A DNA stretch of 6,900 nucleotides, taken from positions 1 through 6,900 of the forward strand of contig JAEOSI010000123.1 in assembly GCA_016840425.1 (NCBI GenBank), read 5' to 3'. Shown here piece by piece: positions 367 through 6,900 of this stretch. The position numbers and the translations under genes are program-made. The notes below the pieces were generated by a model. It saw only the letters and a list, made by a program, of their open reading frames with translations, was not told the origin of the DNA and searched no databases. The first letter of the stretch is position 1; every line of letters begins with the position of its first letter. Origin of the DNA: Candidatus Wukongarchaeum yapensis (GTDB taxonomy: Archaea > Asgardarchaeota > Wukongarchaeia > Wukongarchaeales > Wukongarchaeaceae).

Positions 367-462
367 GGGCCCGTAGCTCAGCCTGGTAGAGCGGCAGGCT
401 CATAATTCCAGTCGATATGAGAAACCTGTTAGTCAAGGGTTCAAATCCCTTCGGGCCCACCA
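367..462 (+). tRNA. tRNA with CAU anticodon, most likely tRNA-Ile2 (agmatidine type); intron 405-423; CCA encoded
   Basis: Acceptor stem GGGCCCG/CGGGCCC; D-arm GCTC-AGCCTGGTA-GAGC; anticodon stem GCAGG/CCTGT with CAT at 401-403; T-arm AAGGG-TTCAAAT-CCCTT; ACCA at 459-462. The mature length is 77 nt. The G1-C72/G2-C71 GGGCCC acceptor is typical of archaeal Ile tRNAs. The initiator has A1-U72 and elongator Met usually starts GCC. Confidence 0.9.
405..423 (+). other. 19-nt tRNA intron at the canonical 37/38 position
   Basis: The intron's TGAG (418-421) pairs with CTCA (399-402). A 3' bulge AAA (422-424) precedes the CCTGT anticodon-stem strand. Confidence 0.88.
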
Positions 463-1604: not shown

Positions 1605-1625
1605 AGTGTATGCTCCGTTTCAAAA

Positions 1626-1643
1626 GTTTAAAGTATCTTTTCC
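1626..1643 (-). promoter_or_regulatory. Candidate BRE/TATA for the flippase-like gene
   Basis: The minus strand reads GGAAAAGATAC-TTTAAAC, with the TATA centred about 26 nt upstream of ATG 1604, which is leaderless-type spacing. The same element reads CAAAAG-TTTAAAG on the plus strand and could be bidirectional. Confidence 0.35.
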
Positions 1644-1784
1644 TAGAGTCGAAAAGATTAGTGGTCGATATTATTTGATTTATAATAGGATATTGTTAGT
1701 AATAAGTTTTTGAGAGGAGATTATGAAAAAAGTGGAATGGTTTTTAATGGTTATTATTTTTATTTTTTTAGGTGATTGGGGGAA

Positions 1785-2420
1785 ATGTTGAGGCGTCGGC
1801 AGGAGCTTGAGATATTTTTGGAAAAGCTTAAGAGTTATCCGGATCCTAAGCTTGTTTTTGAGCAGTATACTACGCCTGCGAGGGTTGTTGCTAATGTTGT
1901 TTGGGAGATGGTTTTGAGGGGGGATTTGCCTTGTTATTCTGTTGTTGATTTGGGTTGTGGTACTGGGAGGTTTGGTATTGCTTGTGCTTTGATGGGGGCT
2001 GAAAAGGTCGTGGGCATCGATATTGATAGAGACGCTGTTTTTTTAGCGGTTGAAAATAGTAAGATAACAGAGGTGGAAAGAAAGGTTAAGTGGGTGGTAG
2101 GGGATATTGATGCGGTGAGAGGAAAGTTTGATTTAGCGGTTATGAATCCTCCTTTTGGGATAAAAGGGGTTGAACGGGATAAGCGTTTCGTTTTGAAGGG
2201 TTTGGAGCTAGCTCCGGTTGTTTATTCTTTGCATTTGGCCGGTGAAAAAACCCGAAAGTTTTTGAATAGGCTTGCTAAATCTTATAATGCAGTTGTAACG
2301 GAGATATTGAGAATGGAGTTTGAAATCCCGAAAACGTACAAGTTTCACCGGAAAAAATGGCACGTGATAAATGTGGATATGTTCAGAATTCAAAGAATTG
2401 AAACATTAAAAAACATTTAA
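1785..2420 (+). CDS. METTL5-family SAM-dependent N6-adenine RNA methyltransferase
   Basis: EQYTTP N-terminal motif, SAM motif I DLGCGTG, acidic GIDID and catalytic NPPF. I moved the start from TTG 1776 to ATG 1785 because the SD AGGTGA (1770-1775) abuts TTG 1776 but sits 9 nt before the ATG. Confidence 0.92.
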   Translation: MLRRRQELEIFLEKLKSYPDPKLVFEQYTTPARVVANVVWEMVLRGDLPCYSVVDLGCGTGRFGIACALMGAEKVVGIDIDRDAVFLAVENSKITEVERKVKWVVGDIDAVRGKFDLAVMNPPFGIKGVERDKRFVLKGLELAPVVYSLHLAGEKTRKFLNRLAKSYNAVVTEILRMEFEIPKTYKFHRKKWHVINVDMFRIQRIETLKNI

Positions 2421-2497
2421 GCTTTTATTTTGAATTGAGAATTTCTGTGGACGGGGTTGTTTAAGGTTTTTATTGCAACGAGGAGGTTGCTTTGTCC

Positions 2498-3124
2498 ATG
2501 AATAGAAAAGAAAACGAGGAAAATAAAGGAAAACGAGGAAAAATAGAGAGATTTGTTTTGCCCGGCGATTTGTTAGGAGTTATTGAGGAGTTTGTTCCTG
2601 GAGATAACTGTTACGTAGAGGACGGAAAAATCTATTCTAACATCGCTGGATATTTATTAGTTGATAAGGCTAAACATAGAGCAAACATTATCCCTGGAAA
2701 TCCGCGACAAAAACTTCCTAAAGTAGGAGATAAGGTTGCAGGTATAATTACATCCACTATGAGAGATTCAGCGACTATAGAGTTTTCCATGGTAAATGAG
2801 GAAAATATAGGGTTACCTTTTACAGGATTGGTGCATGTAAGCCAAATTTCTAAAAAGTTTGTTGAAGATGTTTTCGCAGCAATGCGGCGAGGGGACATTA
2901 TAAGGGCAAGAATAATTGATGTAAAGTTTTTGCCTTTTCAATTGGCTACTAACGAGGGAGATTTAGGGGTGATAAGAGCGCATTGTACTAAGTGTGGTGA
3001 ACCCTTAGTTAAGATGGAGAGAGACCTGCTCGAGTGTCCCGCTTGCGGTTTAAAGGAGAAAAGGAAGTTAGCGAAAGATTATATCCAGCCTCGCTTTTCC
3101 ACAAAAGATAAACACCACAACTAG
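2498..3124 (+). CDS. csl4: Exosome complex RNA-binding cap protein Csl4
   Basis: N-terminal VLPGDLLG..EEF.PG domain, S1 domain (PKVGD...G.VHVSQIS...GDIIRARI) and a C-terminal Zn ribbon CTKC-x14-CPAC ending in ERKLA-like EKRKLA. SD GGAGGT at 2482-2487. The alternative start is TTG 2492. Confidence 0.93.
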   Translation: MNRKENEENKGKRGKIERFVLPGDLLGVIEEFVPGDNCYVEDGKIYSNIAGYLLVDKAKHRANIIPGNPRQKLPKVGDKVAGIITSTMRDSATIEFSMVNEENIGLPFTGLVHVSQISKKFVEDVFAAMRRGDIIRARIIDVKFLPFQLATNEGDLGVIRAHCTKCGEPLVKMERDLLECPACGLKEKRKLAKDYIQPRFSTKDKHHN

Positions 3125-3173
3125 TCCTATATTACTTTTTTCTTAAAGCTTTTTTATAGAAGGGTATCTTTTA

Positions 3174-3827
3174 ATGGGACAATTTGGAAAAAAACATTTA
3201 AACATCTCAATAAAGAGCCAGAAAGAGTTAGAGATGTTTATTGATTTTATAACTAAGACGATTAAATACTGTAATTTTTCCCTTAAAACTAAAGGTTTTA
3301 ACTGCAAAATATCGATCTTGGGGGATAAAGCTGCTCAAAAATTGGCTATAACGACGATTAGAAAGATTCATTCAAATATCAAAAAAGCACTCTATCCTTC
3401 AGCAGAGGGTACTTATGCGTATAGTAGTCAGTTGTTGGCTAAAGTAGTTGGTTTCCCCGTTTCTCAGGAAATGCTGGTAGAGGTTTTGCAGAGGAAAGGT
3501 TTCAGAACCCATATCAAAAAAGATATTTTGGTCACTAATTTGGATTTAAACGGCGTGAAAGAAGAAGCGCAAGACTTATGGAGTAACATAAACTTCTTCA
3601 ATAATCTAAATATGGCCAGATCCTTAAGACACACCTTAGCAATCGCCGCCACCGTTATGGAATTATCACCCCAATTTATGGCTGAAATGGCTACGGAAAA
3701 AAGTTTAATAAAAACTTTAAATGGAAAATATTATTTGAAAGTAAACCCCCAACAAGCTCTAGAAGAACTTTTAGCTGAAAAAAGCCAAAACGAAGCAAAA
3801 ATCAGGCAAAGAAGTGAAAAAACATGA
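3174..3827 (+). CDS. Conserved archaeal hypothetical protein, probably DUF2067 family
   Basis: 217 aa lying between csl4 and rpo11, the usual position of DUF2067. Its sequence pattern fits my recollection of the family (EL..F...I; LYP..EG.Y.Y...L....G...S...LVEVL...G). This is recognition from memory, not an HMM result. Confidence 0.7.
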   Translation: MGQFGKKHLNISIKSQKELEMFIDFITKTIKYCNFSLKTKGFNCKISILGDKAAQKLAITTIRKIHSNIKKALYPSAEGTYAYSSQLLAKVVGFPVSQEMLVEVLQRKGFRTHIKKDILVTNLDLNGVKEEAQDLWSNINFFNNLNMARSLRHTLAIAATVMELSPQFMAEMATEKSLIKTLNGKYYLKVNPQQALEELLAEKSQNEAKIRQRSEKT

Positions 3828-4123
3828 TGATAAAACAGTTAAAACTCGAAGAAAAAATGATTGAAATCGTGATTGAAGGAGAGGGACACACCTTTCTTAA
3901 TATTTTAACCCAAACACTCCAAGAAAATCCAGACGTGAACTTTGCAGCTTACATAATAGACCATCCAAAGATAAGCCATCCACGGCTAGTAGTTTCTGTA
4001 AGCGATGGAACCCCCTTCGAAGCTATAATGGAAGCTACTAAAAAATTGGAAGAAAAAAGCCAAGAATTTATTGAAAAATTTACAGAAGCATTCAAAAAAT
4101 ACAAAGATAAAAAGGAAGAGTAA
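3824..4123 (+). CDS. rpo11: DNA-directed RNA polymerase subunit Rpo11 (L)
   Basis: 99 aa with the RPB11/RpoL signature IEGEGHTFLNIL...L...PDV.FAAY.IDHP. It overlaps the upstream stop via ATGA. Confidence 0.96.
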   Translation: MMIKQLKLEEKMIEIVIEGEGHTFLNILTQTLQENPDVNFAAYIIDHPKISHPRLVVSVSDGTPFEAIMEATKKLEEKSQEFIEKFTEAFKKYKDKKEE

Positions 4124-4166
4124 AAAGGAAAATTAGAGAGGAAAGGTTCCTGAGAGGTTACATATT

Positions 4167-4679
4167 TTGCCTAAAACTTCGAAGGGAGACAATGATAAAA
4201 GCGGGGAGTACTTAACTTCAGGCTGGGAAAATTACCTCAAAAAATTTAGATCTTTCCGTAAGATCCTTAAAAATAAAAATTTAGCACGATTAGGAGATGC
4301 CTTAATTAATTTTGCATATTCCCTAGCTAAATCAAGAATAGAAGGGATCCCGACAGGGGTAAAGGTGCAAGATAAAGCCCTAGCAGAAGCAATAAGAAAA
4401 ACGAAGTTGAAGAAAGTTTTGCCTCTAAGAAGCAAAGAAGATGCGCTAGGAGACGCCGTAGAAGCCCTATGCGCTTACACCTGGTTAAACCAAACGATCA
4501 CAATTGAAGAAATGGTTGAAACACTACAAAACGCCCTCCAAGGAGAAGACATGACGCACCCAAGACTGGAAAAAAAAGCTTGCACAAAAGCCTTCAACGA
4601 ACTACTAAACAAAATAGTCACCAGACACGAAAATTTAGAAAAAAAGATTATACAACCACAACAACAACAAAAATCATAG
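4167..4679 (+). CDS. Archaeal ribonuclease III-like protein (Mini-III-like, no dsRBD)
   Basis: RNase III-type motifs LARLGDALINF and LGDAVEAL..Y.WL in a single 170-aa domain. TTG start with SD GAGGT (4154-4158) 8 nt upstream. Confidence 0.8.
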   Translation: MPKTSKGDNDKSGEYLTSGWENYLKKFRSFRKILKNKNLARLGDALINFAYSLAKSRIEGIPTGVKVQDKALAEAIRKTKLKKVLPLRSKEDALGDAVEALCAYTWLNQTITIEEMVETLQNALQGEDMTHPRLEKKACTKAFNELLNKIVTRHENLEKKIIQPQQQQKS

Positions 4680-4710
4680 AAAAAATAAAGAGATTGCAGG
4701 GGCAGAAATC

Positions 4711-5310
4711 ATGAACCCTGAACTACCCACCATACACCTAGATAAGAAAGGATTACGTGTCTTAGGAATCGCTGAAAGCTTCTATAAAGAAAAGGGAGGC
4801 AAATCAGTTCTCGCAGGAGTTGTGATGCGAGCAGACAAAAACATCATAGATGGCACTACTTTCACCAAGATAACAGTAGGGGGCATGGATGCAACTGAAG
4901 GAACTTTAAAAATTTGGAACCAATTAAAAAGACCAGATATAAACGCGATATTTTTAAACGGCTGTGTTATCGCCATGTTCAACATAATTGATTTAGAAGA
5001 GGTTTGGAAGAAAACCGAAAAACCGCTAATATGCATTACCTACGAAGAAAGTGAAGGATTAGAAAAATACCTAGAAGAATTAGAGAACAAAAAAGAGAGA
5101 GAAGAAATATATGAAAAAAACGGACCAAGAGAGAAGATAACAGTTCACACAGGACACGAAGTCTACATAAGAGCTCTTGGCATAAATACCGACCAAGCCA
5201 TAGAACTTCTAAATAAATTCATTATCCAAGGCTCAAAAGCAGAACCAATAAGAGTGGCAAGAATACTAGCAAGAGAAATACTAAAATTCCTCCATAACTC
5301 AAACGGGTAA
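4711..5310 (+). CDS. DUF99 / UPF0215 family protein (endonuclease V-like fold)
   Basis: RVLGIAESF, LAGVVMR.D..IDG, ITVGGMDAT, G...AMFNIID...V, PLI.I.YE and a C-terminal EPIRVARILA, all typical of DUF99. Confidence 0.85.
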   Translation: MNPELPTIHLDKKGLRVLGIAESFYKEKGGKSVLAGVVMRADKNIIDGTTFTKITVGGMDATEGTLKIWNQLKRPDINAIFLNGCVIAMFNIIDLEEVWKKTEKPLICITYEESEGLEKYLEELENKKEREEIYEKNGPREKITVHTGHEVYIRALGINTDQAIELLNKFIIQGSKAEPIRVARILAREILKFLHNSNG

Positions 5311-5329
5311 TAGAAAGAAGACTAAGCAT

Positions 5330-5390
5330 AACATAAAAGAAAGAGAGGGAGAAAGCACGCAAACAAGAAAAAAAGAAGCGTGCAAATGAT
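5330..5390 (-). terminator. Candidate atpB terminator between convergent genes
   Basis: After the atpB stop the minus strand reads GCACGC-TTCTTTTTTTCTTGTTT-GCGTGC and then a pyrimidine tract TTTCTCCCTCTCTTTCTTTT. This is a 6-bp inverted repeat (5355-5360/5378-5383) with U-rich tracts. Confidence 0.5.
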
Positions 5391-6824
5391 TTATTCTTTC
5401 TCTAATTGAGGCACAATAGGTTCAGTACGATACGAAGGATGCCACTTCTGAATAGTATCCGGCTTACACCGCTTCAACTCACGCTCAGGCAAAATAGACA
5501 ACAAATCCCACATAGTAGTCAAAGTATCCTCAATCGCTCTATCTTCATTTCCTTGATTAATCATCTTCTGCTCAAAACCATCAGCAAACTCCAAATACTT
5601 CCTATCACGCGGAGTTAAAGCCTCTTCACCGACCACCGCAACCAAGTCACGAATATTCCGACCCTCAGCATAACCAGCATAACAAGAATCAGAAACCTCA
5701 CGATGGCTTTCATGCGTATAACCCCTGCCGATAGCCTCCTTCATTAGCCGAGATAACGACGGCAACGGATCAATCGGCGGGAACAGCCCTTTACGATGGA
5801 GACCACGGTCTAAAATGATCTGTCCTTCCGTTATATAACCAGTTAAGTCCGGAACGGGGTGCGTTTTATCATCACTAGGCATCGTCAAAATAGGCATCTG
5901 CGTAATAGTCCCTTTACGCCCTATAATACGCCCCGCCCTCTCGTATATAGTAGCTAAGTCAGAATACAAATAGCCCGGATAGCCTCTTCTTCCTGGTACT
6001 TCTTCTCGGGCTGCGCTGATTTCTCGTAAAGCTTCTGCGTAGTTGGTCATATCGGTTAGGATTACTAGCATGTGGTAGTCGTGTTCGTAGGCTAGGTATT
6101 CTGCTGCTGTTAGGGCGAATCTTGGGGTGATTAGTCGTTCTACTGCTGGGTCGTCTGCTAGGTTTAGGAATAGGACTACTTTTTCTAGGGCGCCTGAGCG
6201 TTCGAAGTCGTTTCTGAAGAATCTTGCTTCTTCTGCTGTTATGCCCATGGCGCAGAATATTACTGCGAATTCTTCTTCTTCTCCGAGTACTTTTGCTTGT
6301 CGTGCTATTTGTGCTGCGCAGAGGTTGTGGGGTAGTCCGCTTCCTGAGAAGAGGGGTAGTTTTTGTCCTCTTACTAGGGTGTTCATTCCGTCGATTGTGC
6401 TTATTCCGGTTTGGATGAATTCTCGTGGGTATTGTCTGGCGTAGGGGTTTATTGGTGATCCTGTTATGTCCCAGTAGTCGTCTGGGACGATGGCGGGTCC
6501 GCCGTCTATTGGGTCTCCTTTTCCTGAGAATACTCTTCCGAGTATGTCGTTGCTTAGGGCGATTTTTATGGTTTCTCCGAGGAATCTTATGCTTGTTTTT
6601 TCGCTTACGTCTAGGCCTCTTGTGCCTTCGAATACTTGTACTACTGCCATGTTTTCTGTTATTTCTAGGACTTGTCCTGTTCGGTCTGTGCCGTCTGGTC
6701 CGGTTATTTTCACGATTTCTGCGAAGCCTACGTCCCTTGTTTTTTCGACGAAGACTAATGGGCCTTGTATGTCTGTGGCTGTGTGATATGTGCGGGTGCT
6801 TGATAGTTTGGAAGATTCTACCAT
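5391..6824 (-). CDS. atpB: A/V-type ATP synthase subunit B (non-catalytic)
   Basis: 477 aa with QTGISTIDG, the degenerate P-loop region [50 protein letters not shown] and PSLSRLM. SD GGTGA (6836-6832) lies 7 nt before the ATG. Confidence 0.98.
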
Positions 6825-6900
6825 TTGTTTTTCACCACGTAAAAATTTTCAAAAGTATGGGTTAGATTTATGATTGAAAGTTTCATGTTGTTTTTTTTTT

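Follow-up and report, generated by a model that had tools for sequence, protein, structure and literature searches.

Jumps in strand composition are the main clue to the starts of DNA synthesis that can be read from sequence only, and replication in Asgard archaea is largely unknown. In vertebrate mitochondrial DNA, silent sites display a gradient of strand asymmetry, with C>T and A>G changes, which is attributed to the time spent single-stranded. The human genome contains N-domains, in which upward skew jumps mark inversions of replication fork polarity and the linear fall corresponds to a gradient of this polarity (PMC3320577). GRINS are repeats by definition, >80% identical to another region of the same cluster; their GC and TA skews are strong, correlated and change abruptly, and they have been linked to gene conversion (2021, PMC8256042). 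With respect to skew, a paper on complete Asgard genomes treats only the cumulative GC skew of whole chromosomes and reports a clear bidirectional skew in some lineages only (PMC11291895). The searchable literature on strand asymmetry in Asgard archaea, on sawtooth skew and on follow-ups of GRINS yielded no account of an archaeal strand skew that saturates at kilobase scale. New here is a jump within a gene that recurs in atpB of three families, with a drifting position, a saturated silent zone and an origin-like polarity without origin recognition box (ORB) elements.

The window, the whole stretch of DNA analysed, is the entire 6.9-kb contig C120 of a genome bin of Candidatus Wukongarchaeum yapensis (G000; 2.16 Mb, 277 contigs). 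Its right-hand end is occupied by atpB, encoding a protein with the Pfam domains ATP-synt_ab_N, ATP-synt_ab and ATP-synt_VA_C that is 93% identical to its orthologue in the same-genus genome G001 and 55-73% identical to those of other Asgard genomes. The gene and its surroundings are as follows.

1776-5310, plus strand: gene cluster converging on atpB (methyltransferase, Csl4, DUF2067, RpoL, RNase III-like gene, Endo_dU)
5311..5390, no strand: spacer separating the convergent Endo_dU and atpB genes; no reset of the skew within it
5391..6824, minus strand: atpB, A/V-type ATP synthase subunit B, 477 codons plus stop, intact ORF

The Endo_dU gene (PF01949; 4711-5310, plus strand), which converges on atpB, belongs to a family whose name refers to the cleavage of DNA with deoxyuridine. 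Its position next to a region shaped by base damage is curious, and any link between the two is putative. In this genome atpA (contig C158) does not lie next to atpB (C120), as is also the case in several complete Asgard genomes, e.g. G003, G007 and G037; atpB forms a separate unit, divergent from a gene for a HTH/phosphoribosyltransferase protein. At the other end of the window, positions 367-462 (plus strand) hold a tRNA-Met(CAT) whose CCA end is encoded and whose 19-nt intron follows position 38; ARAGORN with default settings wrongly calls it tRNA-Tyr(ata). A 37-nt stretch (145-181) is absent from the otherwise identical 18-kb JGI contig L031. It falls within a tRNA-like sequence on the minus strand (~64-222), with acceptor-like ends and insertions, that was recognised by neither ARAGORN nor Rfam, and the difference may be a presence/absence polymorphism of a tRNA intron.

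The sequence-only reading of this DNA had reported an abrupt change of synonymous codon use in the middle of atpB, near position 5980, with no break in the protein. Change-point analysis of third codon positions bore this out: the best change point, at 5981/5982, gains 157 log-likelihood units over a model with one composition, the ORF is intact and the reading frame is continuous. The parts of the gene on either side are listed below.

5982..6824, minus strand: codons 1-281, sense third positions 95% A/C; plus strand G/T-rich; the right-hand tooth of the strand skew begins here
5979..5984, no strand: maximum-likelihood change point between codon 281 (5984-5982) and codon 282 (5981-5979), protein ...PGRRG/YPGYLY...
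5394..5981, minus strand: codons 282-477, sense third positions 79% G/T; plus strand A/C-rich; the left-hand tooth ends here

Third positions ending in G or T make up 4.6% of codons 1-281 (A 57%, C 39%, G 3%, T 1%) versus 79% of codons 282-477 (T 44%, G 35%, A 13%, C 8%), while first and second codon positions are almost constant across the switch. The rise in plus-strand G+T that had been counted by hand agrees with the keto skew in 200-nt windows, which goes from -0.32 at 5501-5700 to +0.38 at 6301-6500. In a control set of 80 diverse metagenomic atpB genes, all from distant relatives with 58-72% identity and none from close kin, the change-point score had a median of 1.8 and a maximum of 6.3. 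Among the 1270 long ORFs of the genome, atpB ranks second for the rise in G/T endings along the gene and harbours the most extreme A/C-ending window of 100 codons (1% G/T). No effect on the protein was seen; the G/T contents of codon positions 1 and 2 match those of unskewed orthologues (0.500 versus 0.507 and 0.477 versus 0.479).

The same data display skews of the size and extent by which GRINS are recognised (>500 bp, mean absolute GC and TA skews >0.15, correlated): in window 6001-6600 the GC skew is +0.15 to +0.23 and the AT skew -0.40 to -0.48, and in 5401-5850 they are -0.30 to -0.37 and +0.15 to +0.18, respectively. The likeness to GRINS therefore includes intense, positively correlated skews at third positions and abrupt switches between G+T and C+A in functional genes. 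Unlike GRINS, atpB is a single-copy gene, since a blastn search with atpB against the whole genome returned only itself and thus no duplicate of >80% DNA identity, and the archaeal pattern extends over the whole genome and across spacers, always with the same sawtooth polarity.

Two artefactual or mosaic origins of the switch had been put forward, an assembly chimera of two strains and an intragenic recombination mosaic. A chimera would be conceivable in a fragmented metagenome bin of 277 contigs, with a contig end only 76 nt upstream of atpB. However, the 2.1-kb JGI contig L032 is 100% identical over window 5372-6900, through the junction, and extends 582 nt further upstream, and the same junction is found in the 18-kb JGI contig L031 and the 16-kb ENA contig L163, the two JGI contigs being derived from two samples. 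Comparable switches also occur in four further species-level lineages. Because the junction is the same in three other assemblies, a chimera has a negligible probability. A mosaic of two phylogenetic origins is contradicted by maximum-likelihood trees of residues 1-260 and 325-477, which are concordant (the present genome and G001 are sisters in both, with families intact), and by the amino-acid divergence between these two, which is flat along atpB at 5-9%; local recombination may still be part of the mechanism. Judged by assemblies and trees, the atpB switch is real and inherited.

The bin contig (window 6825-6900) and L031 (position 1) end at the same base upstream of atpB, at a run of ten A residues. 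Other assemblies continue past this A10 run into the HTH/phosphoribosyltransferase gene, which marks the run as a recurrent assembly break point. Another ENA contig of 2497 nt (P0003) encodes a 704-residue atpB-like protein of an unrelated lineage in which residues ~105-357 are repeated in tandem, with the junction at the PID motif. It was rejected as an example of an insertion at the jump and is an unrelated tandem partial duplication or a misassembly.

The switch in atpB is one sharp A+C-to-G+T jump of a sawtooth of strand composition at kilobase scale, which atpB straddles. To the right of ~5981 the G/T-rich strand is the plus strand and to the left it is the minus strand, and each bias fades over ~4.4 kb whatever the direction of the genes. 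The teeth in the window are the following.

1605..1775, no strand: the preceding sharp A+C-to-G+T jump, located between divergent genes, with the keto skew rising from +0.08 to +0.45 over 1500-2000; the tooth that ends in atpB begins here
1776..5981, plus strand: one full tooth, plus-strand keto skew falling from +0.45 to about -0.3, through six genes on the plus strand, then the convergent spacer and, on the minus strand, the 3' part of atpB

The next tooth begins at 5981 and, as seen in related contigs, comprises the 5' part of atpB, its promoter region and then four upstream genes oriented -,+,+,-. The two teeth flanking atpB, of ~4.4 kb each, thus cross genes oriented -,+,+,-,+ and a divergent promoter region without any reset. 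This is the pattern seen throughout the genome, where a sharp A+C-to-G+T jump is followed by gradual decay irrespective of gene orientation. The keto skew in 300-nt windows is over-dispersed (SD 0.146 versus 0.058 expected), and 79 sharp A+C-to-G+T jumps were found versus 23 of the reverse kind, an excess that is three- to four-fold at every threshold. This ratio is not an artefact of orientation, since the A+C-to-G+T polarity reads alike on both strands. Spacers hold 60 of the 79 sharp jumps (25 co-directional, 16 divergent, 16 convergent and 3 at contig ends), so that divergent spacers are not preferred over convergent ones; a further 16 are no more than 100 nt away from a gene edge. The remaining 3, among them the atpB jump, are deep within genes. 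The only other comparable intragenic jump of the present genome, in psmA, is kept in G001, faint in family f18 and absent in family f13, and as it is not conserved more widely, atpB is special.

A motif shared by the switch points, envisaged in the sequence-only reading, did not emerge: 135 jumps had nothing in common beyond a trivial junction of A-run and T-run. They also lacked a short-palindrome anchor. The spacing of jumps is not regular (coefficient of variation about 0.75, autocorrelation non-periodic).

The bias is a property of the DNA strand and not of the gene. Its continuity across opposite gene orientations disfavours simple transcription-coupled models as well as codon selection. 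In favour of selection within atpB, on the choice of codons or the structure of the mRNA, is that wobble positions with A or C only would yield an unstructured 5' mRNA in a highly expressed gene. The strand bias continues into spacers and oppositely read neighbours, however, and most Asgard atpB orthologues as well as 80 other archaeal contigs show nothing similar; this explanation is largely refuted and hardly credible.

The same kind of switch was found in atpB of several other Asgard genomes. The sequence-only reading had raised the possibility that relatives switch at the same codon, but the switch, at codons 281/282 in the present genome, lies at codon 270 in G001, at codons 309-314 in the f13 genomes G013, G023 and G033 and at codon 320 in G037 of f18, while it is weak in the f18 genome G027. 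No such switch was seen in atpB of the remaining sampled Asgard genomes or in the 80 metagenomic atpB genes, and the skewed genomes fall into three separate clades of the atpB tree. Most DNA of the single-contig relatives G023, G013 and G037 has a weak skew, but atpB stands out by an isolated bipolar patch, in which the plus-strand G/T content of third positions rises from 0.13-0.25 to 0.97-0.98. The patch spans neighbours of both orientations in all three. In G023 and G037 its arms are unequal, with a short arm of ~0.5 kb that ends near the atpB stop codon and a long arm of 2.5-5 kb through upstream genes of either orientation. The neighbours in the patch vary, from peptidase C13 and HerA-like genes (G023) to a PhoU-like gene (G037) and the HTH/phosphoribosyltransferase gene in the present genome. 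As the neighbouring genes differ between genomes, the feature is tied to atpB itself, in three Asgard families.

The downstream context varies within the genus too, while the atpB switch persists. In a sister lineage (L167:5462-7204, L168:2075-3817) atpB and the Endo_dU gene are separated by an inserted gene for a DNA ligase, and in L163 a 185-residue ORF stands in place of the Endo_dU cluster. The intein-containing atpA of G013 (L171, G013:C1:610621-614079, minus strand) has a weaker step of the same sign, with plus-strand third-position G/T of 0.18 to 0.58, ~1.1 kb from its 3' end.

If the bias were linked to transcription, the non-template strand would be exposed to either side of the jump, by R-loops in a gene of high expression or by a bidirectional promoter inside atpB. 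The polarity is in line with divergent transcription, the short arm in G023 and G037 stops near the atpB stop codon, a TATATA box lies ~35 nt from the jump in the present genome, and genes with extreme A/C endings include the likely highly expressed genes for actin, ribosomal protein L4 and RadA. Against this, the teeth are not reset at the real promoter region of atpB or at genes of either orientation, convergent spacers hold as many jumps as divergent ones, atpA of G023 is neutral, and G001 lacks the TATATA box. Furthermore, the bias of the sense strand in the 5' part of atpB is opposite to the usual signature of the non-template strand. Such a mechanism appears quite unlikely.

The sequence-only reading had also pointed out that the polarity of an A+C-to-G+T flip is the one to be expected where replication initiates, and that no obvious origin motif is present in the gene. 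Both observations held. In the single-contig relatives G023, G013 and G037, orc1/cdc6 lies 27-75 kb from atpB, and beside it ORF-free stretches with ORB elements were found (G023 C1:642,873; G037 C1:1,639,823 / 1,639,993; G013 C1:641,551 / 641,718). These elements, with the core TTCCAGTGGAAAC plus a G-run, we take to be of the textbook archaeal-origin type, and their sites are the likely chromosomal origins of the three genomes. All sit on A+C-to-G+T steps of the same sign as the atpB jump, from 0.2-0.38 to about 0.8 in G037, from 0.40 to 0.65 in G023 and from about 0.45 to 0.6 in G013. The steps at these origins are locally intense and fade within a few kb.

A canonical chromosomal replication origin within atpB is nevertheless very improbable. 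It would have the right polarity, with the G+T-rich strand pointing outward from a skew step as at the ORB/Orc1 origins of the relatives, and atpB is within 27-75 kb of orc1/cdc6 in these genomes. However, a search for the ORB core with up to 2 mismatches, which recovered the origins of G023, G037 and G013, gave no match in or beside atpB of the present genome, G023 or G037, nor anywhere on contig C120, and no orc1/cdc6 gene is present in the window. Matches to Cdc6_C in the present genome are on contigs C234, C137 and C32, and the contigs with orc1/cdc6 display no clear origin signature. The site is coding DNA of 47-49% GC and drifts in position among lineages of the genus. A polarity of the flanks at the scale of replichores was not seen around atpB: the arms in G023 and G037 end after 0.5-5 kb with neutral flanks, and the cumulative skew of G023 lacks a regional minimum there. 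The amplitude is also too large, as the atpB step (about 0.15 to 0.98) far exceeds the step at the true origins of G023 and G013. Since it is larger than at true origins, once-per-cycle fork polarity is not the whole cause. Fork polarity would be capped by the value at true origins, so a more intense or more frequent local process is probably needed. Compared with a canonical archaeal oriC, the atpB zone is alike in the sign of the skew step, and the step at the true origin of G037 is also locally intense and fades within ~5 kb; it differs in that it has no ORB or initiator gene, is coding DNA and drifts.

The resemblance to human N-domains is in shape. In both, the skew jumps up sharply and then declines almost linearly, crossing zero and changing sign before it jumps again, with G+T enriched on the strand running outward in 5'-to-3' direction and with jumps that are mostly non-coding and independent of gene direction. 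The archaeal teeth, in contrast, measure ~4 kb versus about 1 Mb (250-fold smaller), and their amplitude at silent sites is near saturation (95-100%) versus a few percent. Also unlike N-domains, the atpB jump is deep in an essential gene, exceeds the relatives' own ORB-origin step and can have short and unequal arms.

Six further protein variants, 94-99% identical, led to DNA for four species-level lineages of the genus. All lineages of the genus have at most 10% G/T endings in codons 1-180 and are G/T-rich in the last ~100 codons, while the boundary ranges from ~codon 190 to 320 (~130 codons) and is sharp in the lineage of the present genome only. Comparison of the present genome with G001 at four-fold sites showed where silent change has accumulated.

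Flanking genes: transversions 0.05-0.09, transitions 0.11-0.17
Codons 1-240: transversions 0.10, transitions 0.01
Codons 241-281: transversions 0.62, transitions 0.12
Codons 282-400: transversions 0.43, transitions 0.15
Codons 401-477: transversions 0.17, transitions 0.11
5625..6104, minus strand (codons 241-400): silent divergence saturated between sister species, amino-acid divergence flat
5964..5981, minus strand: 18-nt block TATCCGGGCTATTTGTAT, the same in 3 of the 4 genus lineages, within the saturated zone

By their transversions, codons 1-240 are judged to be as old as their surroundings and at saturated transition bias, at which the near-absence of transitions (0.01) is expected. Divergence in codons 282-400 is near full saturation for that composition, and silent divergence among the four lineages is highest (0.5-0.6) around codons 241-315, where the amino-acid sequence is best conserved. 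The 18-mer was also considered as a dispersed element and rejected, no other copy being found in the genome.

These data bear on the possibility of a recombination or gene-conversion hot spot, at which breaks would be repaired, or alleles replaced, again and again in the best-conserved stretch of atpB, recoding the flanks and creating the junction. Saturated silent sites in codons 241-400 with many transversions and flat amino-acid divergence, and an 18-nt block that is unchanged in three lineages within this zone, are in line with such a process, as are the skews of GRINS with their link to gene conversion. A variant of this explanation starts from an intein. atpB of G030 (L170:1501-4704, contig C88) carries an intein of ~598 residues with a LAGLIDADG endonuclease domain between Tyr262 and residue 263, inside the zone. 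The corresponding position in the window is:

6036..6041, minus strand: codons 262/263, the intein position of G030; no intein in the present genome

The hot spot might go back to former intein homing at codon 262/263. A recombination hot spot would act in the manner of GRINS, with their link to gene conversion. Residue 263 is Cys in G030 and Ala in 26 of 29 Asgard orthologues. A link between intein and skew was not found at this position: atpB of the present genome is collinear with intein-free orthologues and residue 263 is uncorrelated with skew, Ala263 being the Asgard norm in skewed and unskewed genes, while the intein-bearing gene of G030 is itself unskewed. Recombination in general is further opposed by the shared phylogenetic placement of the two halves, by the absence from the genome of a second copy as donor, and by a skew that reaches kilobases past atpB within a genome-wide sawtooth. 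Damage to a resected 3' tail would, judged by the polarity at ORB origins, probably give the opposite sign. Recombination as the principal cause is unlikely.

The direction of the changes was examined in the two lineages that moved from A/C to G/T endings. At four-fold sites 13 A>T changes were counted versus 3 each of A>G, C>T and C>G, and at two-fold sites 16 C>T versus 4 A>G. With A>T and C>T dominant, the strand turning G/T-rich gains mainly T. Classical deamination would not leave more A>T than A>G changes, and the spectrum is more suggestive of error-prone resynthesis, or of synthesis past damaged or missing bases, than of pure deamination. Vertebrate mitochondrial DNA likewise has one strand G+T-rich and the other A+C-rich at silent sites; there, however, one strand is affected throughout, whereas here the affected strand alternates every few kb and A>T exceeds A>G at four-fold sites. 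A loss of EndoV (PF04493), UDG (PF03167) or NucS (PF01939) was not found, each being present in 7 of the 7 skewed genomes, so no simple loss of repair lies behind the intensity.

The footprint in atpB is shown by these comparisons to be an inherited mutational one, acting at strand level and in place, and affecting opposite strands on the two sides of a hot zone in the gene. That it arose in place follows from codons 1-240, whose transversion divergence at four-fold sites equals that of flanking genes, and from the agreement of the half-gene trees. For the mechanism we infer an ORB-independent hot zone of initiation or repair synthesis, short-range, strand-asymmetric and bidirectional outward, and regard this reading as having about an even chance of being correct. 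DNA synthesis or single-strand exposure over a short range (0.5-5 kb) would start repeatedly in the atpB zone and run outward both ways from it, although from sequence alone a start and an end at the jump are indistinguishable. The exposed strand would gain T and G, chiefly by A>T and C>T, until silent sites saturate. Such a zone would be origin-like but non-canonical, an ORB-independent hot spot of initiation or repair synthesis. Evidence against it is that the 135 jumps share no motif and no ORB is near atpB, that the boundary varies from ~190 to 320 in the genus with no fixed defining site, and that the arms in G023 and G037 are unequal.

A near-saturating strand bias thus reverses its sign within an essential gene while the protein is untouched. 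Regions of this kind violate the assumptions of codon-usage measures, dS-based dating, composition-based binning and the detection of horizontal transfer. Should the jump mark a repair or recombination hot spot, the mutagenic process would be unusually one-sided. Should it mark initiation or restart, a testable map of sites would become available in uncultured relatives of eukaryotes. A more far-reaching proposal is that some Asgard archaea start DNA synthesis at hundreds of ORB-independent sites, a few kb apart, by eukaryote-like or recombination-dependent copying or restart, with the mid-atpB zone as a strong and ancient example kept in three families. We consider this proposal speculative and probably wrong as it stands. 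If it were true, initiation zones in the prokaryotes most closely related to eukaryotes could be read from the sawtooth as from a fossil map.
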